A stretch of DNA of 64,000 bases from Eukaryota sp. GEM-RC1 (taxonomy: Eukaryota): the NCBI GenBank assembly GCA_040285855.1, contig JAUFOQ010000001.1:3472001-3536000 (forward strand), given 5' to 3'. The first letter of the stretch is position 1. The number at the start of each line of letters is the position of its first letter. The notes under the pieces were generated by a model. It was not told the origin of the DNA. It ran no database searches and worked only from the letters and a program-made list of their open reading frames with translations. Below, piece after piece: positions 7,938 through 63,357 of this stretch. The translations under genes were made by a program, and so were the position numbers.

Positions 7938-9029
7938 TTGTACTTGATATACTAGAAGTGGAATCATAATTGGTCTTTGTTGTAAACTGATGCACGTAGT
8001 CTATAAAATAAAGGATGGTACCTTGTTTATGAGACTAATATAAGCTTGATGCAAAAAGGTAAAACTATAGCTAAGAAGGACGTGTTAACACGTGGCATTA
8101 ACAAAACACTGCAGATTAAATACAAGACTTCACTTCTACACATCTTTTGAGAATGACTAGGCTTCACTTGGTATTAAAGGTGTTAAATTCACTCCGAGTC
8201 ACTTTCTAATTGATCTAGTGGGAAGTTACGTAGATTTTTGAACATAGTTGGAAAATACAGCTCCCTGATAAAAAAATACAAAAAAATGCACTTAATACAG
8301 AAAAATACAAAAAACTTGACCTAAGAAAACTTTCGCAAAAGTCATGTTGAGAATTTTGTTTAAAAATGACAATGACTGAAATTATATAGGTATCACAGAA
8401 TAGATAACATAACAGAAAATCAAAATTACACCAGAAAGGTCCTTGCGCGAATGGCTGGATGGCGCGCCTGGCGGTATGACGGTCATACTCCAACACTGAA
8501 GTAAAGACAATTGATTGTAATTCTCTGTGACCAATGTTTTGAGCATAGCACACTAAAACACGTGTTCTTCCAGTTACAAAAAGGTTTGCAAAAACGCTAG
8601 CCAAAAAGTAAAAACAGTCGCTTTCCATCGTTTTTACGGTGTTTTTAAATTTAAGAAAATAATAGGAGTTCATTTGTATCAATAAACTCATACATACTAC
8701 ATACAACTGTAATACACTAAGTGAATAAAGTTAAATTCTCCACCTTAACACGGGAATTATCCCTATACAACTTCAAAAAATTAATAATGATGCAGATTAT
8801 TGCATTAAGTGTAGTAAACCATAGTGAGCAAATACGTGTTAGTACGCTTTCAAATTCTTTAACACCCCGTGTTTGCTCAATCTTTGTATAATATAAACAA
8901 TCTTGGTAAAATTATCTTAGTTCATCTACATTTTTCAAGTATTTCGAAGATCTTCTTTAAAAAAAGAGGCATAATTTTAGAATGGCTGAATGGAAAAATC
9001 GTATAGTGTTTTCCATACATCGGAATATG

Positions 9030-35040: not shown

Positions 35041-37946
35041 ATGCTTCATTTGGAATGCTCGATCTGCTCCTCAATCTTTGACAAGGCTTCCACGCTTCCT
35101 TGTGGTCACTGCTTTTGTCTCACGTGTATTTCTAAATGGCTAGAAGGGCACCGAAATTGTCCTAATTGTCGTAGACATGCCTCTATCAATGTTGTTGCTC
35201 CTTGTTATGCTCTCCGTGAAGCTGTTGACGCTTTTGTTAAGAATCCCGCCGCCCTACCCGAGATCTCCTCCGAAGACCTCAGTTTCAACCTCAACGATGA
35301 ATTGGGTAGTGGAATAAGCGGAACTGTTTATCTCTGTGAATGGGCTGACACCAATGTTGCTTTGAAGCTCGTCCGTAAAGCTGATCAGAATGAAGCAAGA
35401 CTCTTGCAGGAAGTCTCCCACATGGCCTCTTTGTCTCATCCTTTTGTCCTTCGAGTGTTTGGTATAACCAGACTTCCTAAGCACATTGGTATCTTGATGG
35501 AACTTGGTTCTGGACATTTACAAGTTCCAACATCTCTTGCTCCCACCACCCTTGCTCAAGCTATTGATATATGTACCGCTGTGAAGTACTTGCATTCCAA
35601 GGAAATTGTACACCATGACATTAAGCCTCAAAATGTAGTTATCGTAAACTCACAGGTCAAACTCGCCGATTTTGGTTCTTCACGGACCATGTACAACTAC
35701 ACCTCCACGCTCCAAGTAACTCCGAAGTACACTCCTCCAGAAGCTTTTAAGAAAATCTATGGACCAGCTTTCGACGTTTATAGTCTGGGAATATTGTTTT
35801 ATGAAATGTTTACCAATAGACTTGCTTTTGAAGGTATGCTTGTTTTTGAAGTAGTTGAGGCTAAACAAAATGAACATTTATTGAGCTTTCCTGATGGTTT
35901 TCCTGGGCAAATTTCATCGTTGATTAACAAATGTCTTTCAGTTAATCCTAATGAAAGACCTTGTATTAATGATGTACTGAAAGAGTTGAAAGAAATTCAA
36001 GGAACCATTGAGGTCTTTGAGTTGAACAATTCTCTAGAAAATGATCTTCAAATAGAAAAAAGTAATGATGAATTAGCTTTTGAAGGTTACCAAGAAGCTG
36101 CAGATCGAGGTGATGCTGAAGCCATGGTTAATATGGGTAACTGTTTTCTTAATGGTATTGGGGTAAGCAAGAACGAAAGACAAGCTCTTCACTGGTTCTT
36201 GGAAGCTTATTCTAAGGGAAACTTTAACGCAGGCACATACTTAGGGCAAACTGTTTTTGGTGTCAAAAACACGCAGAATTAGGTAATGAACTTGTAATGA
36301 AAGCTCTTGGTGATTGTTACAAAAGTGGACAAGGAATCCAAAAAGACCAATCGAAAGCTGTATACTGGTATCAAAAAGCGGCAGATTTGGGTAAATCTAG
36401 TGCCATGGTTAATCTTGGTATTTGTTACTACAATGGACAAGGAATCCAAAAAGACCAATCGAAGGCTGTATACTGGTATCAAAAAGCGGCAGATTTGGGT
36501 AAATCTAGTGCCATGGTTAATCTTGGTATTTGTTACTACAATGGACAAGGAATCCAAAAAGACCAATCGAAGGCTGTATACTGGTATCAAAAAGCGGCAG
36601 ATTTGGGTGAATCTAGTGCCATGGTTAATCTTGGTATTTGTTACTACAATGGACAAGGAATCCAAAAAGACCAATCGAAGGCTGTATACTGGTATCAAAA
36701 AGCGGCAGATTTGGGTGAATCTAGTGCCATGGTTAATCTTGGTATTTGTTACTGCAATGGACAAGGAATCCAAAAAGACCAATCGAAGGCTGTATACTGG
36801 TATCAAAAAGCGGCAGATTTGGGTGAATCTAGTGCCATGGTTAATCTTGGTATTTGTTACTACAATGGACAAGGAATCCAAACAGATCACGCAACAGCTG
36901 TGTACTGGTATCAAAAAGCGGCAGATTTGGGTTACTCTGGTGCCATGTCTAATCTTGGTGTTTGTTACGAAATTGGACAAGGAATTGAAAAAGATCACGC
37001 AACAGCTGTGTACTGGTATCAAAAAGCTGCAGATTTGAATCACACTGTTGCAATGAATAATCTTGGTTATTGTTACCAAAATGGACAAGGAATTGAAAAA
37101 GATCACGCCACAGCTGTGTACTGGTATCAAAAAGCGGCAGATTTGGGTTACTCTGGTGCCATGTCTAATCTTGGTGTTTGTTACAAAAATGGACAAGGAA
37201 TCCAAAAAGATCACTCAAAAGCTGTGTACTGGTATCAAAAAGCGGCAGATTTGGGCAACTCTTATGCCATGTATAATCTTGGTGTTTGTTACGAAATTGG
37301 ACAAGGAATTGAAAAAGATCACGCAACAGCTGTGTACTGGTATCAAAAAGCGGCAGATTTGGGTTACTCTGGTGCCATGTCTAATCTTGGTGTTTGTTAC
37401 AAAAATGGACAAGGAATCCAAAAGATCACTCAAAAGCTGTGTACTGGTATCAAAAAGCGGCAGATTTGGGCAACTCTTATGCCATGTATAATCTTGGTGT
37501 TTGTTACGAAATTGGACAAGGAATTGAAAAAGATCACGCAACAGCTGTGTACTGGTATCAAAAAGCGGCAGATTTGGGTAATTCTAGTGCCGTGAATAAT
37601 CTTGGTGTTTGTTACCAAAATGGACAAGGAATTGAAAAAGATCATTCAAAAGCTGTATACTGGTTTCCAAAAAGCGGCAGATTTGGGTGACTCTAATGCC
37701 ATGTATAATCTTGCACTTTGTTACGAAAATGGAGAAGGAATCCAAAAAGACCAATCAAAAACTGTGTACTGGTATCAAAAAGCTGCAGATTTGGGTCACT
37801 CTGATGCCATGTTTAATCTGGGTAATTGTTACGATAATGGAGAAGGAATTGAAAACGACCAATCAAAAGCTGTGTACTGGTATCAAAAAGCTGCAGATTT
37901 GGGTGACTCTGATGCTTTAAGGCAACTAGAACGATTATTGAGTTGA
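35041..37946 (+). CDS. RING finger-Ser/Thr kinase-Sel1 repeat protein, copy 2
   Basis: RING CSIC...PCGHCFCLTC...CPNC and kinase GSGISG, VALK, HHDIKPQN, DFG, TPPE. About 15 tandem 108-bp Sel1 repeats. Frameshifts near 36258, 37420 and 37668. Confidence 0.92.
36297..37915 (+). repeat. 108-bp coding tandem repeat (Sel1-like)
   Basis: Near-identical units such as AMVNLGICYYNGQGIQKDQSKAVYWYQKAADLGESS. Confidence 0.95.
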
Positions 37947-39720: not shown

Positions 39721-41553
39721 ATGTTGAAGGATGATCTTCTCATGCCAACTTCTGAATCTCTCAACTGTCAAGGCCATGTTTCTCCAAATCAAACCAATTC
39801 CACCCCTGATAGTTTCGTCCCACACGAGTCCTCTTCTTGTCATGTACTACCCTCCACTGAACAGTCTCTATCTCCTTACTTGTCACCTTTATCATGTTCC
39901 CATTCAGACTTATCTGAACATGCACTAACCATGTATTCAGACAAGTCACCATGTCATACGATCTCTCTCCAGCAGTCTCTATTGGTGCATGTCTTCACTC
40001 ACATGATACGTGCTGTACACTCTTGTCTTGATGATGATGAAGTGCAATTTTATGACTTCTCAACCCTAACACTCAAGCTTCCAAACGTGTTTACAAAAAT
40101 TGGTAGTATTAGTAGACTTTTTTTTCATTCCACTCTTCTTGCCACTCGGACCTTCTTGGAACAGAATTCCTTTCATGTTGTTGATGTTGATCTTCCATTA
40201 CTCTGCTCTTTTGTTTCGTTCTTTAATGCTGAATTACAATCGATCTCACTTACTGTCACGTCATCTTTACTGGACAATTTCCCCGATTATTATCCAATCA
40301 TTCTTGGATTGACTTTTGATTGGGATAGAATGGAAAATTTCAGTTTTCACGAGTCATTTTATCTTCTTCGACTACCTAGGCTTATGTTTCTTGATTGTAG
40401 TTGCTCATTTGATTTTGATGATGACGTGGGCAACACATTTGGAATTAGTATCAAAAATGTCGTAATGCTAGCAGAAACTTTGAAAATTAATTCAACGATA
40501 ACTGAAATCGATTTAAGTGGAAATTCCATTGATCATTTAGGTGCTGAAGCGTTAGCTGAAGCTTTGAAAGTCAATTGTACGATTACAAGTCTTGATCTTA
40601 GTGGTAACTTTATTGAAACTGAAGGTACAAAAGCACTTGCTGAAGCATTAACAATTAATTCAACGATAACTGAAATCGATTTAAGTGGAAATTCTATAGG
40701 TAACAAAGGTGCTAAAGCATTAGCCGAACCCATAGCAATCAATTCTACAATTTTAAAAATTAATTTAGGTGACAATTCTATAGGTGACAGAGGTGCCTTG
40801 GCATTAGCTAAAGCCTTGAAAATTAATTCTACGATTACAAGTCTTGATCTAGATGGCAACTTTATAGGTGATAAAGGTATCGTGGCATTAGCTGGGGCTT
40901 TCAGAATCAATTCTACAATTTCCAAGATTCATTTAGGTGGCAACTCTTTTGGGGATGAAGGTGTTAATCCAATCAGTGCTCAAGGTGTTTCTGTTTTATG
41001 TGAGATTTTAAAATTCAATTCCAGTATTTCTTCTATTAATTTATGGTGTCATTCTATTGGTGACGAGGGGGCAACTTCAATTTCAGAAATGTTGAAGGTC
41101 AATTCAGCAATAACAAAAATCCATTTCGGCTTCAACTCTATTGGAGATGAAGGTGCTAAGGTGTTGTCGGGTGTGTTGAGAACTAATTCCACTATTACTG
41201 AAATTGGTCTAGATGGTAATTCTATTGGAATTGGAGGTGCTAGCTCATTATTTGAAGCTTTAAAACAGAATTCTAGCCTTCGATTGATCAATCTCGGGGG
41301 AAACTCTATTGGAGATGAAGGTGTTAGTGTATTAGCCGAGATGTTAAAAATCAATTCAACTGTTACTAAAATATTTCTAAGCGGCAACTCAATAGGTGAT
41401 AAAGGGGCAATGATGATAGCCGAAGCATTAAAAGTCAATTCTGCAATTACTGTAGTTTACCTCGGAACCCTTCCTATTGACGACCAATGTGTCCAACTCC
41501 TTAAAACAATGTCAAAGAATCGCATTATGTGTAAGTCTGCTAACACTAGTTAG
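39721..41553 (+). CDS. RNI/NLRC3-like leucine-rich-repeat protein
   Basis: 610-aa ORF with about 12 28-residue repeats LKINSTITEIDLSGNSIG. No NACHT P-loop seen. Confidence 0.88.
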   Translation: MLKDDLLMPTSESLNCQGHVSPNQTNSTPDSFVPHESSSCHVLPSTEQSLSPYLSPLSCSHSDLSEHALTMYSDKSPCHTISLQQSLLVHVFTHMIRAVHSCLDDDEVQFYDFSTLTLKLPNVFTKIGSISRLFFHSTLLATRTFLEQNSFHVVDVDLPLLCSFVSFFNAELQSISLTVTSSLLDNFPDYYPIILGLTFDWDRMENFSFHESFYLLRLPRLMFLDCSCSFDFDDDVGNTFGISIKNVVMLAETLKINSTITEIDLSGNSIDHLGAEALAEALKVNCTITSLDLSGNFIETEGTKALAEALTINSTITEIDLSGNSIGNKGAKALAEPIAINSTILKINLGDNSIGDRGALALAKALKINSTITSLDLDGNFIGDKGIVALAGAFRINSTISKIHLGGNSFGDEGVNPISAQGVSVLCEILKFNSSISSINLWCHSIGDEGATSISEMLKVNSAITKIHFGFNSIGDEGAKVLSGVLRTNSTITEIGLDGNSIGIGGASSLFEALKQNSSLRLINLGGNSIGDEGVSVLAEMLKINSTVTKIFLSGNSIGDKGAMMIAEALKVNSAITVVYLGTLPIDDQCVQLLKTMSKNRIMCKSANTS

Positions 41554-42712
41554 TTTAACTCATGCTTAAAACGAGTTTTAATTGCACTTACCACCATTTT
41601 TGGGAGGAAGAAGTCATTCTCATTCTCTAAACAAAAAGTGAAAAATTGATCATCATTAACAGTTTATATGGCTACATTGAAGTCGTTTTCTTTAGTTTTT
41701 TTGACAGTGTTACAGGAACTATATGCCCCTATATCAATATAATCATCGTCCAACGAAAATGTTCAGGTACTATCTTGATAATGCCTTTCAAGAGATGACA
41801 AATCATTAAAGACAGAGGTTACCACAAACAGTTTACTCATTCTTAAAAGTAATATTGAAGTATGTTTTACAAAAAATTCAACACTTAAACTGAATTAAAC
41901 AAGATTACGATGGTGAAAAAAACAGTGAGGTTGACATCAACATTTTTGTTCTATTAATCCCGATATACTCTAAAACATCTAATAGAGCGCCACCCCCTAA
42001 TTTTTGGGGTTTGGGGGTGGCGTTGTATTAGATGCTTTAGAGTAATTAGTTGTTTGTTAATAGAGTACAAATTCAAATTCAGTTTTGTGCATTGATTTTC
42101 AACCGTAACTGTTGTCACCGAGAAACAGAAGGCCACATACTATAGATTGACTTGTTTGCAAGAAAATACGTGTTTTCGAAAGCAGTTTACAAAAACAAAA
42201 TGATAATGTTGGTAGTCACAACAAAAGGAATTGATTCGGTTTGGCTTCATTTTATTGAGCAGACCTTTTTGAGAGAATAAAGTGATTCATTGGAAATAGT
42301 TTTTGAAACAATTTTGATAAACAGTGATTTTTAAAAAATTGCCATTCATCACTTGTAGAATCTAATAATCATACTTCTTTCTATTTCGAATTCGCTCTAC
42401 TGGTATGGTAAGAAACAGTTTATTGATGGAGGGTACAAAATTACATGTTTTAATAAAAGCTATGAAACACTAGACACCGAAAATTCCTGGTCAACAGTGC
42501 CACAGTTTTTATACAACTTTGTGAAAATTGATTTAAAAACTTAGGCACCGAACGAAACAAAAAGAAAATCAAACGGTTATGCCAAATTGATGGGTTAAAT
42601 CTCTTATTCTGAGAATCCAAAATCAGATAAAAACTTAGAAGTCATTTCACCAATACAACCAAAAATAGAAATAGCAAATGGAACAAATATAAATTTTGAA
42701 TATAAATTTTGA

Positions 42713-44404: not shown

Positions 44405-47400
44405 TCATCCTAATAGTCGTTCTAGTTGCCTTTGGGCTTTAGAGTCACCCAAATCTGCAGCTTTTTGACACCAGTACACCGCTTTTGAGTGATCTTTTGG
44501 ATTCCTTGTCCATTGTAGTAACTAGCACCAAGATTAAACATAGCATCAGAGTGACCCAAATCTGCAGCTTTTTGGAAACCAGTACACAGCTTTTGAGTGA
44601 TCTTTACGGATTCCTTGTCCATTGTAGTAACTAGCACCAAGATTAAACATAGCATCAGAGTGACCCAAATCTGCAGCTTTTTGGAAACCAGTACACAGCT
44701 TTTGAGTGATCTTTACGGATTCCTTGTCCATCGAAGCAACAAATACCAAGATTATTCATGGCACCAGAATTTCCCAAATCTGCAGCTTTTTGAAACCAGT
44801 ACACAGCTTTTGAGTGATCTTTACGGATTCCTTGTCCATTGTAGTAACTAGCACCAAGATTAAACATAGCATCAGAGTGACCCAAATCTGCAGCTTTTTG
44901 GAAACCAGTACACAGCTTTTGAGTGATCTTTACGGATTCCTTGTCCATCGAAGCAACAAATACCAAGATTATTCATGGCACCAGAATTTCCCAAATCTGC
45001 AGCTTTTTGATACCAGTACACAGCTGTTGCGTGATCTTTTTGGATTCCTTGTCCATTTTTGTAACAAAAACCAAGACTAATCATGGCACCAGAATTTCCC
45101 AAATCTGCAGCTTTTTGATACCAGTATACCGCTTTTGAGTGATCTTTTTGGATTCCTTGTCCATTGTAGTAACTAGCACCAAGATTAAACATAGCATCAG
45201 AGTGACCCAAATTGGCAGCTTTTTGATACCAGTAGGCAGCTTTTGAGTGATCTTTTGGATTCCTTGTCCATTCTCGTAACAAAAACCAAGAGTAAACATG
45301 GCATCAGAATTTCCCAAATCTGCAGCTTTTTGATACCAGTACACAGCTGTTGCATCATCTTTTTGGATTCCATTTTCGTAACAATCACCAAGATTATTCA
45401 TGGCAAAAGAATTTCCCAAATCTGCAGCTTTTTGATACCAGTACACAGCTTTTGAGTGATCTTTTGGATTCCTTGTCCATTTTCGTAACAATCACCAAGA
45501 TTATTCATGGCAAAAGAATTTCCCAAATCTGCAGCTTTTTGATACCAGTACACAGCTTTTGAGTGATCTTTTGGATTCCTTGTCCATTTTCGTAACAAAT
45601 ACCAAGATTATTCATGGCATTAGAATTTCCCAAATCTGTAGCTTTTTGATACCAGTACACAGCTGTTGCGTGATCTTTTGGATTCCTTGTCCATTTTCGT
45701 AACAATCACCAAGATTATTCATGGCACCAGAATTTTCCAAATCTGCAGCTTTTTGATACCAGTACACCGCTTTTGAGTGATCTTTTGGATTCCTTGTCCA
45801 TTTTCGTAACAAATACCAAGATTATTCATGGCATTAGAATTTCCCAAATCTGTAGCTTTTTGATACCAGTACACAGCTGTTACGTGATCTTTTTGGATTC
45901 CTTGTCCATTTTCGTAACAATCACCAAGATTATTCATGGCACCAGAATTTTCCAAATCTGCAGCTTTTTGATACCAGTACACCGCTTTTGAGTGATCTTT
46001 TGGATTCCTTGTCCATTTTCGTAACAATCACCAAGATTATTCATGGCACCAGAATTTTCCAAATCTGCAGCTTTTTGATACCAGTACACCGCTTTTGAGT
46101 GATCTTTTGGATTCCTTGTCCATTTTCGTAACAAATACCAAGATTATTCATGGCATTAGAATTTCCCAAATCTGTAGCTTTTTGATACCAGTAAACAGCT
46201 TTTGAGTGCTCCTTTTGGATTCCTTCTCCATTGTGGTAACAAACACCGAGATTATTCATTGCAACTGTTTTACCCAAATTGGCAGCCTGTTGATACCAGT
46301 AAACAGCTTTTGAGTGATTCTTTTGGATTCCTTCTCCATGGTGGTAACAAACACCCAAAGCAGTCATTGCAAGTTCATCGCCTATTTCTGCGTGTATTTG
46401 ACACCATTGAATAGTTTGCCCTAAGTTATTTCTCGCGTTAGAGTTTCCCTTATAAAGAGCTTCCAAGAACCAGTAAACAGCTTGTCTTTCGTTCTTGTTT
46501 ACCCCAATACCATTAAGAAAACAGTTACCCAGATTAACCATGGCTTCAGCATCACCTCGTTCTGCAGCTTCTTGGTAACCTTCAAAAGCTAATTCATCAT
46601 TACTTTTTTCTATTTGAAAATCATTTTCTATAGTATTGTTCAACTCAAAGACTTCAATGGTTCCTTGAATTTCTTTCAACTCTTTCAGTACATCATTAAT
46701 AGAAGGTCTTTCACTAGGATTAACTGAAAGACATTTGTTAATCAAGGTTAAAATTGGCACAGGAAAACCATCAGGAATGCTCAATAAATGTTCTTTTGTT
46801 TAGCCTCAACTACTTCAAAAACTGACATACTTTCAAAGGCAAGTCTATTGGTAAACATTTCATAAAACAATATTCCCAGACTATAAACGTCGAAAGCTGG
46901 TCCATATTTTTTACTGAAAGCTTCTGGAGGAGTGTACTTCGGAGTTACTTGGAGCGTGGAGGTGTAGTTGTACATGGCCCGTGAAGAACCAAAATCGGCG
47001 AGTTTGACCTGTGAATTTACGATAATGACATTTTGGGGCTTAATGTCATGGTGGACAATTTCCTTGGAATGCAAGTACTTCACAGCGGTACATATATCAA
47101 TAGCTTGAGCAAGGGTGGTGGGAGAAAGAGATGTTGGAACTTGTAAATGTCCAGAACCAAGTTCCATCAAGATACCAATGTGCTTCGGAAGTCTGGTTAT
47201 ACCAAACACTCGAAGGACAAAAGGATGAGACAGAGAGGCCATGTGGGAGACTTCCTGCAAGAGTCTTGCTTCATTCTGATCAGCTTTACGAACGAGTTTC
47301 AAAGCAACTTTGGCGTCAGCCCATTCACAGAGATAAACAGTTCCGCTAATTCCACTACCCAATTCATCGTTGAGGTTGAAACTGAGGTCTTCAGACAGTA

Positions 47401-55024: not shown

Positions 55025-56327
55025 TGAGTAATGATGGAGTAATGGAGAGAATTGAGATTGAGAATTTCATTTCCTACTCCATGTCCAGAGGATTTGTTAA
55101 TATTGATTGTACAAGTAGTTTGTATTTGTAAGAGTAAATAAAAGGCGTTTTTCCTATTCCAGTCTGATTAAAAGTAGTGCTTCTGTGTTAGTTCATGAGG
55201 TTGCTTGTATTGGGCGCTAGATACGGAAGTCGCTATACTTTAGTTAAATTATGGTGACTTCCGTATCTAGCACTTTATTATCTCTTGGCAGACATTATGC
55301 GGACAAGGCTGGTTAAGAAAATTAGTTAGGGTCTTTTACTATTTGTTATGTAAGTACAGTTAACCCTGTCTATAGCGTCACTATATGTCCTTACGCTATA
55401 ACCAGTTTTACCATATATCCAATAAAGACCCTGTGCAGTTTTACAAATTGAGTTGAGTCTTTATATACAAAGTAAATGAAGAGAACTAGGAGGAGTGGGC
55501 CATCATCATCTGGTGTATGATATATTAGATACACCGTGTATCTAATACTTATGTTATACCAGTGTTTATTTCAGTCAAGTTAAATCATTCTGGTGAAATT
55601 ACTAGTGTTGATGAAAGACAGTGTGTTTGTGTCAGCACATAAACCCTCTGTTTGCTTACATAAACTAACATAAATCAAATAAACCGGAACTACACTGTAT
55701 ACTGTTCCAACGTCTTGAAGTGTCTAGACCTGTTTAGACAATAGTTTTAGAAACGTTTATGCATTCTCTCATTACTGAAGCAGACCTTTTGTTATCCTCT
55801 ATAATTCTAGATCAGAAAGTTGACTAACAAACAACAACATTTAGTCCATTTTGTGTGCAACGGTTCATGGACATTTTTCAGGAAGACTGAACAATGAACG
55901 TCAAGATGTAGAAACTTTAGTTGTGTGTTTGTCAGATACAATGGACCGAAGTCTGACAACCATCAAATAAGGAAATACGTCATGATGTTTGGTACGAACG
56001 ATCTGAACCGACCGTGATAAGTTTTGAGCCCAATACTTATGTTTTGGAAAGAGGATTTATGCTACTATTTCACCTGCGACTATCACTTGATCAGAGCAAC
56101 TGTAAGGATCATTGCTTGTTTGCTAAAATCGGTTTCAGCAACACAACATTTATGCTTCTGATTTGAAGAGTTATTACATAACATCACAAACCCTTGAATT
56201 GACTCTACTAATCAGTGACTTGTTATATCATCAAAAACCACAGTTACAGGAAAACTCACAGAACAGTTGAGCTAACAGAAACCCTCGATGCTATCTACAA
56301 TTCTGTTCGTAGTTTGATCCCTCACAA

Positions 56328-57008
56328 ATGAATTCGACAAACAGAGAAGTTGGCTCGCCTGAAACAAGTTTTATTGTTGACGTGAGATCTGGACAACCCC
56401 AGGTAGCAGTGCTATTGTTTGATGGTGTAGAAGAAACTGAAGCAGTTGCCAGTATTGACATTCTCCGTCGTGCTGGTGTTGCTGTTACTACAATCAAATG
56501 CTCTTGTGAAAGTAACGAGGTGACAACACAGCATGGCATAATCATGCGAGCTGAGAATTGCTTTGACCAGGGTAGGTTCTGATTGTGAAGTTAATTATAG
56601 CATGTCAATTGCAACAACTAACTAAAGATAGCTGAAGGAGATGTGTTTGATGCGGTTGTGGTACCAGGAGGAGATCGACACAGATCATTGGCAATTCAAG
56701 CATGTGATGAAGCCACAAAGTTCATCATCCGTCACTATGAAAAAAAGAAGATTATTGCAAGTTGTTGTACCGGAATTCCGCTGTTATCGCAACTAGGAAT
56801 TTTGAAAAATCACAGAATTACTGTTCACTCAATGTTCAAAGAAGAAGTAGAAGCAAAAGAGAAGTTGGATGATGCTGTAGTGATTGATGATCACGTTTTG
56901 ACATCAAAAGGACTTGCCACTATTCTAGAATTCAATTTGGCTTTGATTGAAATGCTAATGGGACGTGATCAAAGAGAGAATGTTGAAACAGATATTCTAG
57001 TTGATTGA
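56328..57008 (+). CDS. DJ-1/PfpI family protein, one intron
   Basis: GVEETEAV...DILRRAG, intron 56572-56631, FDAVVVPGG, ASCCTG (nucleophile Cys) and LTSKG. Confidence 0.88.
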
Positions 57009-57303
57009 TTGTAGTGAATCCTGGAACAACTTGAGCTTCTCTATTTTAGAATGAATGTGAATACAGAAATTTTAGAATATTTTAAAGCAAATGGATACTT
57101 AGTAAGTTTGTGTTGAGATTTCATTTAATAAATAGTTCTCGTTGAGATGGCTTACTGTGCATGGTCATTCTAATGTTGATTTAACACTTTATTCATGAAC
57201 AATAAGTTGTTGAAGATGTACTGTAGTTAATAGCATTAAGTCGATGTCATAGATGCCAGGCTTATTGATGAGCTTGTATCAATCCTAAAAGAAAGGGTGA
57301 AAT

Positions 57304-57827
57304 TTAGAAGAACTTACAGGGGTCGGTCTTGCCACAAACTGTACATAAACCTTTTGAATATCTACCTTGGGGTACATGGGAGACATCATATCTTCCATCC
57401 AAGAACTTCCAGGATTGGCGTTTGGCCCAAGATTCACACTGCTTATAGGAACCAGCATACCCAAAGTTACAAGTACCATCATTACAAATACACCGACGGA
57501 CGGGAAACATGATTTTCTCATTTGTTTGGATTCCCAAAATGGCTTCTGATAGACTGTTTTCAAAGACTTTGGCTGCAGAAGTTTCAGAGTTGAGGCTGTT
57601 AATGCTATCAGCGCAAAGGGAACAACCACCACTACTGAATGAACTACGGGCAAAAAGGTACACATTACGTCAGGTGATGCCTTAATATTGTTTGCAGTCT
57701 TCTGACACCAGCAGTGACAGTCCGCTTGGGTTTTAGAATATCCAGACCCACAAGGCCATGGACATCGGCATCCAGCATTTGTGAGAACAAGAACCAGCGA
57801 AATTAAAAGAGCGACAGTGAACGTCAT
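57304..57827 (-). CDS. Small secreted cysteine-rich protein with two internal Cys modules
   Basis: Signal peptide MTFTVALLISLVLVLTNA, then CRCPWPCG...CHCWC...CSLC and CICNDGTC...CESW...CTVC. Frameshift near 57655. Confidence 0.6.
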
Positions 57828-59108
57828 CGGAATGTGAAGAAGTGGATTATGATCAATCTTATGCATTTTTATGTTTGTACTTGTAACCACAAGCAAGAGA
57901 TTGTGTTGTTACAAAGGTCGGTATTGCTGCTGTTGCAACCATATGGTTCGATGTCAGAAAAAACAATTAATGGGACATTTTCTATCTGACAGGAAGGTCA
58001 TTGTTATTAACCACCAAACTCCTGGTAGGTGGGTGCTGAACCTCTGAATTTTAGTTTCTTAAAATCTCAAATTATCAAGTGAGTTCTTGGCTTATCAAGT
58101 GAGTTCATGTTCATCACTACACAAAAGATGAGTTGGAGTACATCAACAATGCTGTTATTGGTCCACACTATCTTAAAAATGCAAAGATTTCCAATACGGT
58201 TTGTTCTTCAAAGATCCATCTGCTGGTAGAATCTTAAACACAAGAATTGGAGGTATTACCCTAGTTTTGTGATTATGTGATTAGAAATCATCCAATTTGC
58301 AGAATCAAATGTGATTTGTCAAGACTTGAAATGTAGACTGTTGTTCAACCACTACTAATACAACAGAATTTCAATCTCAAATTTATCTGGGTAAGTCAAG
58401 CTGGTTAACTGTTTCTCTGACACAATAAAAGATCTCTATCTTTCATTTCAAACCATCTATAGATTCAGATGAATGTAAAAAGGCTGAAGCTATAAAACAA
58501 GTCTTTTAGTTTGTCTAATAAATATTTTGTAGAATGTAAATAAATATTGTTTAGACAAATAAGCATACGTCGACTGGGAATTCCTTATTGATGATGCTTT
58601 ATTTTGTTCATAAAGTCAAGCCACTTATGTCAGTCTATTGTCCCTATTTAATGTTGTTTAGTTGTGTCACGTGTAACATCACATTTAGTCATTTGTCTGT
58701 GAGAAATTAACCTAAATGAAAGTGATATATGGGTTCTGAATTGTGGTTACTGACTATTATTGCTTTCTATATGTTCAAGTGATAGTACTGTAGCTTATTG
58801 TAGAATTGTTCTTTTTACTTCAATCTTTTCTTTCCTACATAAATCGTAGCAGGTTTTCTCTTATTAAGCATCACAAAACAACCATTAAAATATACGATAT
58901 AAATTTATCAAACGTAACTAACAATACTATATCCCCCATCACTCTTGCAAACATCACATCCAAAAAATTCGAATCCTTAAATCCAATCCCACAACAATAC
59001 ACACACATCAATTCACGAAACTCATCCAATATTCCAAAACACTGTTCATCACAAATCAATTCATGATTTGATATCTAGTTTCGACATAACAAAAGTATTG
59101 GTTAAGAA

Positions 59109-59843
59109 CATAGTTGCGAATCACAAATTTTTGTGATGTGATTTTGTGATGTGATTGTTGTGACTCACAAAATCACAAAGGCATCCATTTGTGATGTGAA
59201 ATTGTGATTGCTGTGATTTCCAATATCACAAAGTAAACAATTTGTGATTTTGTGATGTGATTGTTGTGATATGTAATTTCTTAGATTTTACATTACCATG
59301 TGTTTATTACTATCATAAACAATGTTACGTACAAGAATTCGGATCACCAACTTATGAGATAGAAGTAAATTTAACATCGGAACTGAAAAAACAATTATTG
59401 TTTTTTTTAAAAAACAAATGTCTTAATATTTTCCATCTATCTTAGACTCCATGGAAGAACATAACTAGCTTACATCCGAAAACTTCCTTAAGTAACTTCC
59501 TTTGGGACACGATTGGAGAGTTACGAAATCTGATAGCCCATTTGGAAAGTCAACAATATGAACTTCATATTATGAAGCACTTTGATTCTATTACTCAAAG
59601 GTCGGATTTGGAATATTATCGGACCTTACTACTAAAAACTCCAAAGGTCTTCCAGCGTGAAATTCAGCGTAAGAACAAGACACTTGCTTCAGTTTTTACA
59701 TTTCATTAACTTTCCAGACTATTTTTTGTTCAATCATTGTGATGTTGTGATGTTAAATCACAAATATCACAAAAATATTACTTGTGATGTGATTATTGTG
59801 ACTCACAAAATCACAAATTCAAATTTTGTGATTCGCAACTATG
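59109..59843. mobile_element. Non-autonomous hAT-type element
   Basis: Perfect 19-bp TIR catagttgcgaatcacaaa, 8-bp TSD GTTAAGAA, tgtgat subterminal repeats. Confidence 0.92.
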
Positions 59844-59907
59844 GTTAAGAACAAAACATTGAAGTACAGTGTACTTGTCCCTATCATTTAAATGAAAACT
59901 CAAAATT

Positions 59908-60190
59908 TTGACCATTCAAGGTCACGGTAGACCTACCATCCTCGAGAGACCAAAATATCAAACAGTACCTGTCGTGGATGGCGGGAAGACAGATCCAATT
60001 CCTAAGAAAATGACTGTAAGTAAGGGTAAGGGTAAGGCAAAGCGTCCTCTAACAACTATGAGAGGTCCTAACAGATGTCGTATATGTTCTCAACCTGGTC
60101 ATAACATAACAACTTGTCCTAAGGGTCCTAAGGTTTTGCGAATTAGGACAATTATTTGTCAAACTGCGGATTTGCTCATGAGCAACAATA
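59908..60190 (+). pseudogene. 3' remnant of a second Fanzor copy (C-terminal tail plus CCHC knuckle)
   Basis: TIQGHGRPTILERPKYQT...CRICSQPGHNITTC aligns with TINGQGRPSALERSKTQT...CGNCGQEGHNKRSC at 62380-62613. Confidence 0.8.
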
Positions 60191-62780
60191 GTTTTCATTT
60201 TGGGTGAATATCCCCATTTTACCAATTCCCCCACACACCCAATTCCCACAACCTCTTTTTACTTATGGGATACACTTTTGAGATACTCTGGGACTCAAGA
60301 CTCGACTTAACGAGCATGTCTGTCCACGCTTCTGGACACGATTTCCAAAAATCTTCAAGACTAGAAATGAACGAAAAAGAAAAAATTGCATTTCAGTACT
60401 TGAACAACTTTTCTCCACTGCTACAACAGTTGTCTGATGAAATTGGAACAAATCAAATTTCTTTTCCTGATTCTACGTCAATGTCTCCCATATTTCATTA
60501 CACTGCCAAACAAATTTCTACAAATTATGCCAACAATATGGTCAAAAATTTTCATGATTATGTATTCAGATTCTTTAATCTGGTAAAAAGAAAGAAAGTA
60601 AGACTTGAACAAATAAGTGATCAAGTTGATAAGAAAGAATTGATTTCGAAATTGAATTCAGTCAGAGATTCGATTATCAATGGAAATTTTGATGAAATTC
60701 CCATTAATAATCACAAGATCTTCCCTTATCCACTTGAAGAATTAACATTGAGGTTTTTTGCGTATTTGAAATTTTCTTTGTTTCCAATGTTTTCAAAAAG
60801 AACATTTACTATTTACAGAAAGTAAAGCCGATGCAGTTAATTTCTCATGCTCTATACATCAACCGAACAATACAATCTTTGTGTTTGGTTGATGGAAAAC
60901 CAATCAGTGTAAACAATCCTTTTCCAATGACGAAGACATTGATTCCCCAGCATATTCGTTTGGACACTGATTGGATTAATCAAAGATTTGTCCATATATG
61001 TCGTGGCAAAAAAGCAGATGAAATAAGGAAAAAGGTTTTTGATCAGGTCCTTACTGACAAAGCTGTGGCACCAACAAAATCATTTGTCTTTAGATATTCT
61101 TCAATTCTGACTGATGGAATTTCTTGTTTGGTTTTAATGAGGAAAGATTTAGTTGATGAAGATGGAAATACTTTCAAAGATTTTACTGCTAAATCTCTCG
61201 GAACTTCGGAAAGATACATTCACTCTTTATCAAATGAGAATATTCACGAATTACAATTGAAAGAAAAAAAGAATTGTCGGTGTCGATCCCAATGAATATG
61301 ATTTAATGTATTGTGTTTCTGAAAAGACAGTCGATGAGCTTAAAGAAGAAGATATTTCTGGAAATAATCCACTCAAAAACGATTACCCTCAGAAATCAGA
61401 AGTAAGAAAAGAGGAGGAATTAAGAAAAGAAAGAAACAATTACAAGATTGGAAAAATTCGAATAATGATGTAAAATCAAAGAAAAAGGCTAAGCACAAAT
61501 GGAAGAAGTTTAATTACACAGCTGGAGAAAGAGCTTATGATAGGAAATCTAAAAAATATTGTAAATCTGAAAATAGAAAACTGAAAGAATTTTCTATCGA
61601 ATCACCAGATGAAACTGTCACTGAAAGACAACTTAAAGATTTTTTGGTTCTTCGTCCTGATAATATTCTTGTAACAGGAAGAGATGTCGTTAACCAATTT
61701 TCCAATGCTGTATCAAATGGGGAAAGAAAGTCGTGTTTCAGTGACACATTTGAAACATATATTAAAGAAGCTGAACGATATAACGTATATTTGAGTTTTT
61801 TTTACGAAGATGACTGGTTTAGAAAGAGGAAATTCCAAATTTATTCAAATAACCAACAATCGGAGAAAAACATGCTGGAACGCTTCAATTTAACATATGG
61901 ACCTCCAGAAGACGTCATCATTGGCTATGGGGATTGGAGCTCAAAAGGTAAAACAAGAAAGGGTAAAACCTCAACGGTTAGAGGAGTGGAAATCCGTAAA
62001 ATGTTAAGAAGATATGGATACCAAATATTTCTTGTTGATGAATACAGAACAAGCAAGTGTTGTTCCAAATGTGCTGAGGAAAAATCAACTTTCGTAGAAT
62101 GTGAAAATGTTTCAGAACTAAAGGTTCTTGGTCCCAAAGGTAAGAGACAGCTAAGAAGGACGAAGAGAAATTTAAGAAGAGAAATTTTGCTCGAAAACAA
62201 ACAAGATCCTCTAAACCAACGGGATTTTGGAAGCAGAGTGGGAGGTGAAGCAGAAGTCATTGGAAGAAGAAGCTAAATCCACACCCTGGGGACTGGTAAG
62301 GTGCTCAGATGCTGAGTGTGGTACTTATTGGAATAGAGACCTAAATTCTGCCATTAATATCTATTCCATCATTGAAGCAACGATCAATGGTCAAGGTAGG
62401 CCATCCGCTCTCGAGAGATCTAAAACTCAAACAACAGATCTCGAGAGTGGTAAGGATACTTTGGCGAGAGACCAGAAGGAGAAGACTGTGACCAAGAAGG
62501 AGAAAACTTCAACAGGAAAGAAGAAGACTGTGACCGGAAAGAACAAAACTTCAACAGGAAAGAAGAAAACATGTGGAAATTGTGGCCAAGAAGGTCATAA
62601 CAAAAGGTCATGCAAGAATCCACCAAAAGAAATGAGTTCGCCTAAAAGAAGAAGCGTAATGTCAGTCCAGCAGACGAATGTCTCTCGTAAAGAACTTTAG
62701 TGTACTCTTAACAGTACGCAGCGAAGTGGGCTTAGCTCACTGAGTGTCTGTGGTTTCGATACTCTAATCAAAATGAAAAT
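60191..62780 (+). mobile_element. Fanzor-carrying element with short imperfect inverted ends
   Basis: ta|gttttcattttg at 60189-60202 and caaaatgaaaat|ta at 62769-62782. The 11-bp core is perfect. No transposase inside. Confidence 0.6.
60265..62700 (+). CDS. Fanzor (Fanzor1-like TnpB homolog), about 810 aa over five reading segments
   Basis: NIYY..K..P, PQHIRLDT and ILTDGISC. RuvC-I IVGVDPN (D at 61285). IIGYGDWS. RuvC-II plus zinc finger LVDEYRTSKCCSKC (E at 62040). RCSDAEC...WNRDLNSAINI (D at 62338). Frameshifts near 60785, 61270, 61435 and 62225. Confidence 0.9.
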
Positions 62781-62800
62781 TAACAAAGTTGTGTACTTTG
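62700..62800 (+). ncRNA. Candidate Fanzor omegaRNA (scaffold about 62700-62780, putative guide from about 62781)
   Basis: Three consecutive hairpins with G-U pairs favouring the + strand: gtgtact/agtacgc 62700-62719, agtgggc/gctcact 62725-62741 and gagtgtc/gatactc 62742-62764. They end next to the right inverted end. Confidence 0.65.
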
Positions 62801-62874
62801 GGAATACTAGTATCCATTTGAGTTGAGAACCACAGTAGTGAAAATGTATCAAGTTAATGATAAAGTTAGAAACA

Positions 62875-63357
62875 ATGTCTTCCACTAAATTAAATGGCCA
62901 GCTCTTATTAGCTTGGGGTTCTGAAACTGGAACTGTGGATCAAGCCCAAGACGATTTATGCGATCGACTTCGTCCTCTTGGAGTTGACGTCTTGTCTAAA
63001 GAACTAAACGACGTCACAGCTGATGACATTAGAGAAGCCAACCTAACCTTAATTTTGGTGTCCTCAGCTTCTGGAGGTGAAGTACCAGGAAATGCCGAGG
63101 ATTTCTTGTCTGAAATGCAGGACTTAGCTGCTTCTGATCCGAAAGCTCTTGAAGGTGTTAGATTTGTTCTGTTTGGATTTGGTGATCGAACATATGACGA
63201 TACTTTCCAGTTTGGACCTCTCTCGATTTGGAAGGTTATGAATGATTTGGGAGCTTCTCCAGTAATGGAAAGAGGTGTTGGAGATGCAAATGATGATGAT
63301 GGTATTGAAGGCACTTTTGATCCTTTTGTTGAAGAGTTTATAGAAAAGTTTTTGTAA
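62875..63357 (+). CDS. Stand-alone flavodoxin
   Basis: LAWGSETGT FMN loop, SSASGGEVPGNA, FVLFGFGDRTY. Acidic, about 160 aa. Confidence 0.88.
   Translation: MSSTKLNGQLLLAWGSETGTVDQAQDDLCDRLRPLGVDVLSKELNDVTADDIREANLTLILVSSASGGEVPGNAEDFLSEMQDLAASDPKALEGVRFVLFGFGDRTYDDTFQFGPLSIWKVMNDLGASPVMERGVGDANDDDGIEGTFDPFVEEFIEKFL

Follow-up and report, generated by a model that had tools for sequence, protein, structure and literature searches.

The right end of a Fanzor1 transposon in the 64-kb window (the whole stretch of DNA analysed, 64,000 nucleotides) raises the question of which guide RNA it encodes and where the scaffold of this RNA begins and ends. Three hairpins lie between the stop codon of the Fanzor1 gene and the end of the element. 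Fanzor transposons with an omegaRNA at the right end are already known, so that by themselves the three hairpins would add one case to these. Our best explanation, held with about even confidence, is that the Fanzor1 transposon at 60191-62780 would encode an omegaRNA that is ~400 nt long or made of two parts.

The element is delimited by short inverted ends. The earlier note had placed an inverted end behind the hairpins, and this was borne out: the right terminal inverted repeat CAAAATGAAAAT (62769-62780, + strand) pairs at 11 of 12 positions with the left repeat GTTTTCATTTTG (60191-60202, + strand). These 12-bp repeats, with TA outside both (60189-60190 and 62781-62782), bound a 2.59-kb element at 60191-62780, as seen in this single copy, and no empty site was observed. 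Among the 16 TA dinucleotides past the stop codon, only 62781-62782 had an upstream inverted partner matching at least 12 of 14 positions (13/14), and such a TA-anchored match occurred at a frequency of 0.004 among 1953 random region pairs. TA duplications have been described for Spu-1 and mariner-type Fanzor1 elements. A right end at 62780 with a TA duplication is supported. By analogy to CATA of SpuFz1, the sequence CAATA to the left of the element (60186-60190) would provide the TAM context, and we infer from it a TAM that ends in TA. No transposase was seen within the element. Two other candidates for the true ends, a longer terminal inverted repeat and an 8-bp GTGTACTT duplication, were rejected because no inverted ends were found for them.

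Membership in Fanzor1 was judged by the RuvC D...E-x-x-[TS]-S-C4 finger...RD motif together with similarity to solved Fz1 proteins. The gene upstream of the hairpins (60295-62700, + strand, TAG stop at 62698-62700) kept the RuvC triad (D at 61285, E at 62040 and D at 62338) and the C4 finger, and the VDPN, DEYRTSKCCSKC and NRDLN motifs were found across its frames. A phmmer search with one gene fragment gave E-values of 5.9e-9 for SpuFz1, 1.1e-7 for PpFz1 and 7e-4 for GtFz1. Judged from its sequence, the gene is a Fanzor1. It is truncated at the 5' end, an intact ORF with an N-terminal WED/REC start being absent, and its reading frame is broken four times, each time by a frameshift in a homopolymer run (~60795, ~61262, ~61375 and ~62225). 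Homology to the paralog P0027 starts only at 60295 (P0027 residue 52), and P0190 and P0191 reach more than 100 aa further towards the N terminus; the N-terminal part thus appears to be gone, and the protein of this copy is likely inactive. Three of the four frameshifts recurred in the paralog models P0190, P0191 and P0024, suggesting either systematic read errors or shared decay.

The paralogs, labelled Eukaryota sp. GEM-RC1, are 79-94% identical over the C-terminal ORF, suggesting a young Fanzor family, and relatives occur in TZLM1-RC and TZLM3-RCL (NCBI labels, unclassified eukaryotes). No close DNA relatives were found among 456 candidates from metagenome contigs or 469 from viral contigs; the best 80 of 367 metagenome relatives were 23-41% identical. 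This Fanzor1 family carries a C-terminal extension of ~100 codons that includes a CCHC zinc knuckle (62572-62613, + strand). In a set of 48 proteins, including 11 copies from the long-tailed P0040 family, ordinary Fz1 proteins ended a median of 28 residues past the RP motif. As a separate observation, the relatives P0009, P0023, P0171 and P0189 have an N-terminal DNA polymerase B 3'-5' exonuclease domain (PF03104, E-values of 6e-10 to 5e-13) fused to Fanzor1. By eye, the acidic exonuclease motifs are seemingly intact in P0023 and degenerate in P0009, and the exonuclease part is missing from the element's own copy. Full-text literature searches, in which few subscription papers were covered, turned up no account of Fanzors from this lineage, nor of Fanzors fused to a zinc knuckle or a PolB exonuclease, nor of a native Fz1 omegaRNA of ~400 nt. 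The findings point to a Fanzor lineage in many copies, some with zinc-knuckle tails and some with exonuclease fusions, for which the literature searched gave no description.

Folding of the + strand past the gene gave three neighbouring stems of 7 bp each: H1 (62700-62719, arms 62700-62706 and 62713-62719, loop CUUAAC), H2 (62725-62741, arms 62725-62731 and 62735-62741, loop UUA) and H3 (62742-62764, arms 62742-62748 and 62758-62764). As the earlier note had described, they occupy 65 nt from the stop codon, whose last base is the first base of H1, and each contains a G-U pair (exactly one); both sequence and folding agreed on this. The segment 62700-62782 folded at -24.4 kcal/mol on the + strand (z -3.02, equalled by 1 of 200 shuffles) and at -14.5 kcal/mol on the - strand (z -0.91, equalled by 38 of 200 shuffles). 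The proposal that the stems work only on the + strand therefore holds as a strand bias (z -3.0 vs. -0.9), but not in its "only", since a 5-bp core of H1 folds on the - strand too. A structured non-coding segment hence adjoins the right end of the element on the strand of the Fanzor1 gene. Equally stable folding was observed in 139 of the 12,784 83-nt windows of the 64 kb (~1.1%), so that the position of the segment weighs more than its energy. Rfam gave nothing at the three-hairpin position, and its 12 sub-threshold matches all lay away from it. We consider it likely that 62700-62782 is part of an omegaRNA.

The terminal bases of this segment were unpaired in the minimum free energy (MFE) structure and formed no canonical closing stem to the linker; an anchored helix was present in 16 of 20 viral scaffolds. 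The right ends of these 20 viral loci were set by motif, and an automatic TIR finder gave mostly spurious ends. The H3 loop (62751-62756) is complementary to 62777-62782, which may allow a 6-bp pseudoknot beside the guide (chance ~1%), and this loop was the sole partner of at least 5 bp for the last scaffold bases within 62380-62764. A 4-bp UAAU/AUUA stem, noticed by eye, is an alternative for the terminal bases.

The extent of the scaffold depends on which hairpin serves as the first stem (SL1). The three solved Fz1 RNAs have in common a 7-bp SL1 that binds RuvC/TNB, and in SpuFz1 the backbone of the SL1 loop G touches the catalytic Asp. We fetched 141 Fz-related loci and anchored 60 distinct tails on the RP motif. 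A strict pattern, in which UCA is accompanied by a 7-bp stem whose loop has CG at its end, was present in 27 of the 60 tails; 17 of these 27 were aligned, one misaligned row and near-duplicates being left out, and the 17 hairpins showed strong covariation. By eye, the (U/A)CG-type pattern was also seen in 9 of the 11 Fz1-labelled rows of Saito Suppl. Table 3 (PMC10432273), but not in GtFz1 or in row 28. Compared with these features, H1 has the 7-bp stem and the position but no (U/A)CG loop end, whereas hpB, a hairpin inside the ORF, has 7 bp, the UCG and the position but no 5' U-C-N. H3 offers 6 bp and a UCG, but lies too close to the element end for SL1. A model built from the 17 hairpins matched none of H1, hpA and hpB, at a sensitivity of 8 of 33 held-out loci. 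H1 as drawn in the earlier note thus stands as a 7-bp stem, but it lacks the first-stem loop signature and a match to the SL1 model, and it is predicted to unfold with the native flank attached.

The in-ORF module at the RP motif (62387-62450) gave a z of -4.1 on the + strand and -1.35 on the - strand, and in 36 sliding 90-nt windows the + strand z fell below -2 only at 59905, 62380 and 62695. Folding and comparison place here hpA, a 6-bp hairpin over the G-Q-G-R-P codons (62387-62404, + strand), and hpB, a 12-bp hairpin (62405-62450, + strand) that is a candidate SL1 of the omegaRNA. In the outer 7 bp of hpB, the UCG at 62441-62443 directly precedes the 3' arm, and it is paired in the predicted fold. 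The flank directly 5' of the stem reads CCAU/CCUA instead of U-C-N, and within the hpB loop a TCA stands at the canonical distance from the TCG. A C-terminal remnant of a second Fanzor1 family, recognised by homology at 59911-60132 (+ strand) and sharing 77-82% amino acid identity with the 26-member P0040 cluster, has its own hpA (59919-59934) and hpB (59936-59981). UCG precedes the hpB 3' arm in both the element and the remnant, and in both the arm begins 46 nt past the R codon; the same arm spacing was 43-63 nt in 16 of 32 signature-bearing relatives. Beside this, the homology of the remnant begins only ~8 nt before its hpA, like a possible ghost element or RNA-derived copy, and a motif that resembles an element end, AAATGAAAAC (59890-59899), is found a little upstream of it.

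Covariation was assessed on two DNA copies, hpA and hpB of the element against those of the upstream remnant. Across both hairpins, 33 of 36 cells were paired; in 3 of 18 pairs both partners had changed and in 2 only one, with one compensatory pair in hpA, and slid registers of the alignment gave no double changes. The covariation score was reached by 57 of 500 shuffles, a control that is weak with two sequences, and the hpA sequence is mostly dictated by its codons. The peptides encoded by the arms vary by family and stay complementary at the codon level (ALE/LES, ILE/VVD and IFE/FEN). For P0028, which belongs to a third family under another species label, 12 of 13 Watson-Crick pairs were codon-possible with the hpB register set beforehand (null p 0.003, best of 53 registers); the same test on five TZLM3-labelled proteins gave 8-10 of 13 pairs (p 0.06-0.43). 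The 80-nt scaffold of 62700-62780 that had been proposed earlier is consistent with the omegaRNA position in published precedent, but it is probably incomplete, because the structure that is best conserved and covaries lies upstream in the ORF.

The two structured regions would be bordered by a long-range helix, P3 (62451-62699, + strand), a folding prediction in which 62451-62472 would pair with 62680-62699 in segments of 5, 4 and 9 bp. Its pair probabilities were 0.70-0.93. P3 is predicted to lie directly between hpB and H1, adjoining both, and to loop out ~205 nt of coding sequence including the knuckle-coding stretch. The whole of 62384-62782 gave a z of -3.5 on the + strand and 0.0 on the - strand. 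When paired with 20,000 random 21-mers, the 5' arm of P3 reached the same energy with 0.135% of them, so that the position of the helix is unlikely to be due to chance; a P3-like match somewhere in a random 230-nt stretch arose 8.7% of the time, and the P3 equivalent of the remnant was not significant (25%). The VSRK residues encoded by the 3' arm were kept in all seven inner-family proteins (one as LSRK), and the preceding residues varied. A D-to-V change in P0016 would break one P3 pair.

In the model that we prefer, the three hairpins, the right TIR and the TA would be the guide-proximal half of the omegaRNA, and the scaffold would begin ~300 nt upstream of the hairpins, inside the gene. 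A transcript through the right end would be trimmed to an RNA of ~400 nt, or to two pieces paired with each other. The first stem would be hpB, in contact with RuvC/TNB, and P3 would loop out the K/T-rich zinc-knuckle tail codons and stack hpB beside H1-H3. The TIR and TA would terminate the scaffold, possibly closed by the 6-bp pseudoknot with the H3 loop, and the ~15 nt at 62783-62797 would be the guide. In its fullest form, a ~400-nt guide RNA over the last ~100 codons with SL1 at the ancestral site, a looped-out knuckle insertion, a TnpB-like pseudoknot of a kind regarded as lost in Fanzor1, and PolB-exonuclease-bearing relatives, the proposal is tentative, and we place it somewhat below an even chance.

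The guide start at 62781 given in the earlier note had to be shifted. Since the target-site duplication is counted as scaffold in Fanzor1 reRNAs (PMC10711439), the TA at 62781-62782, recognised by precedent and inverted match, is predicted to form the last scaffold bases, and by analogy the first guide base should be 62783, directly behind this TA. Precedent and folding predict a guide of ~15 nt of flank (62783-62797, + strand); the SpuFz1 RNA is described as extending 14-15 nt beyond the conserved end. Because such a guide is the flank next to the TA, the Fanzor would, once the element is excised, cleave the TA site left empty, and because the protein of this copy is likely dead, its RNA would serve paralogs in trans. 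The native guide is also predicted to disrupt H1: 62788-62797 can form 10 bp with 62713-62722, and addition of the native 15-nt flank lowered the H1 pair probability from 0.98 to 0.01 in folding. Displacement of H1 was seen with 1.4% of 1500 random TA flanks.

Several further observations concern this flank. A flavodoxin-domain gene (62875-63357, PF00258, E 1e-16) starts less than 100 nt past the right end, so that the guide would be read from its upstream region. In inverted orientation, and with gaps, the stretch 62783-62856 resembles the scaffold at a level reached by 1.5% of 5000 nulls, which we treat as probable chance. The H1 arm GTGTACT at 62700 is repeated at 62791 and also at 59869. 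The repeats at 62700 and 62791 made it attractive to regard the flank 62783-62850 as the 3' half of the remnant's omegaRNA, split by an exact nested insertion, but this idea is not supported: the flank is less stably folded than its shuffled versions (z +1.2), the computed empty site gave z +0.4, direct alignment of flank to scaffold was at shuffle level, and 60133-60190 is unlike the coding tail of the P0040 family (47% of nulls score equally).

The preferred model has to be weighed against a short scaffold of ~62695-62782 plus guide, in which H1 would be SL1 and the in-ORF hairpins would act only in the precursor, in processing or stability. H1 has the 7 bp of SL1 in all three solved Fz1 RNAs and begins with GU at the stop codon, as in many fetched relatives; the 83 nt fit the ~80 nt of SpuFz1, and a three-stem shape is already published for Fz1 (PMC10711439). 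The H1 loop CUUAAC, however, lacks the (U/A)CG end seen in the tails and in the Fz1 rows, the very loop whose G backbone meets the catalytic Asp in SpuFz1. GtFz1, whose first stem by our reading also has no CG-ending loop, indicates that exceptions to this rule exist. Conserved upstream structure outside a mature RNA is itself published (PMC10530073), and a 275-nt 5' extension raised SpuFz1 activity. With the SL1 model giving no match and the MFE leaving the terminal bases unpaired, we consider the short scaffold doubtful, though a serious contender.

It is unlikely that the hairpins are no guide-RNA scaffold at all and instead either arose by chance or act as mRNA 3'-end signals in a decayed element. 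The ~1.1% of windows that fold equally well, the missing matches to the SL1 model and Rfam, and the broken gene of this copy are all consistent with such a reading. Against it, the hairpins fill the interval from stop codon to TIR exactly, where the tested Fanzors encode their RNA, the folding is strand-biased, the catalytic triad is kept, and the family is young by the paralog identity over the C-terminal ORF. A right end 13 nt further on, at GTTGTG|TA (TA 62794-62795), would let 62713-62722/62788-62797 close around H2 and H3 and start the guide at 62796. With 15 nt of flank added, this 10-bp helix forms the MFE structure, few random TA flanks displace H1 as the native one does, and the helix is similar to the closing stem UACAC/GUGUA found in viral Fz1 scaffolds. 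Yet an equal energy gain was obtained with 10% of random flanks, and the TA at 62794-62795 lacks an inverted partner (the best match within 56000-60300 is 9/14) as opposed to 13/14 for 62781-62782, leaving this the least probable of the readings and a very improbable one.

We compared the locus with known systems; the stem assignments in published Fanzor RNAs are our own reading of the sequences. Like SpuFz1/Spu-1 (Saito et al. 2023, PMC10432273; PDB 8GKH), this is a Fanzor1-only element with TIRs and TA and with structure from the stop codon to the right end, in which the guide would come from the flank and a ghost-like use in trans is proposed here. It differs in its repeats (12 bp vs. ~30 bp), in having three hairpins as opposed to SL1 and one stem, in an SL1-like signature in the ORF ~330 nt from the end, and in a protein with a ~100-aa tail including the CCHC knuckle. 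The SfAV and related Fanzor1 reRNAs (Yoon et al. 2023, PMC10711439) share the three-stem prediction, the TIR and TSD inside the scaffold, and a guide of ~15 nt beyond the TSD; they have a terminal-base stem and, according to that study, no pseudoknot, unlike the possible H3-loop pseudoknot here. Longer RNAs are also known, namely the omegaRNAs of GtFz1 (150 nt) and B. salamandrivorans Fz1 (229 nt, coordinates 15876-16104) (PMC11423790; PMC10432273 Suppl. Table 3). The former covers 17 C-terminal codons of its ORF, and the latter, by our reading, has a long insertion in the first-stem loop. Unlike in these, the overlap proposed here comprises ~100 codons, and a long-range helix would loop out those of a protein domain. 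Conserved structure upstream of the mature RNA, in ApmFNuc into the coding region, is likewise known from the fRNAs of ApmFNuc and CrFNuc (Jiang et al. 2023, PMC10530073); in contrast to our model, it was read there as a processing element outside the mature RNA. Other literature drawn on was PMC13434818 and PMC3627910.

If the long, ORF-overlapping form is true, it would show how a guide RNA tolerates the insertion of a protein domain, with the same sequence selected as RNA structure and as codons. Rules that define the RNA as running from stop codon to TIR could then miss an essential first stem in the mining of Fanzors for genome editing.

The window contains other features. A non-autonomous element at 59109-59843 has ~41-bp inverted ends starting with CATAG and, next to them, subterminal TGTGA repeats; it is flanked by an 8-bp duplication, GTTAAGAA, at 59101-59108 and 59844-59851, and we take it to be hAT-like by its features. 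Two 108-bp tandem arrays in opposite orientation lie at 36305-37910 and 44448-46355 (15 and 18 copies), and their 36-codon period presumably reflects Sel1-like repeat genes. The 84-bp repeats (28 codons) at 40469-40962 and 11677-11907 are probably leucine-rich repeat genes. Very stable hairpins or palindromes on both strands were found at ~2411-2525, ~18541-18700, ~41941-42065 and ~55181-55300, reaching -52.7 kcal/mol per 83 nt; they are possibly the ends of other transposons. Finally, 8227-8352 on the - strand gave a weak tblastn match (E 0.007) to P0027 residues 5-42 and may be another fragment of the Fanzor family.
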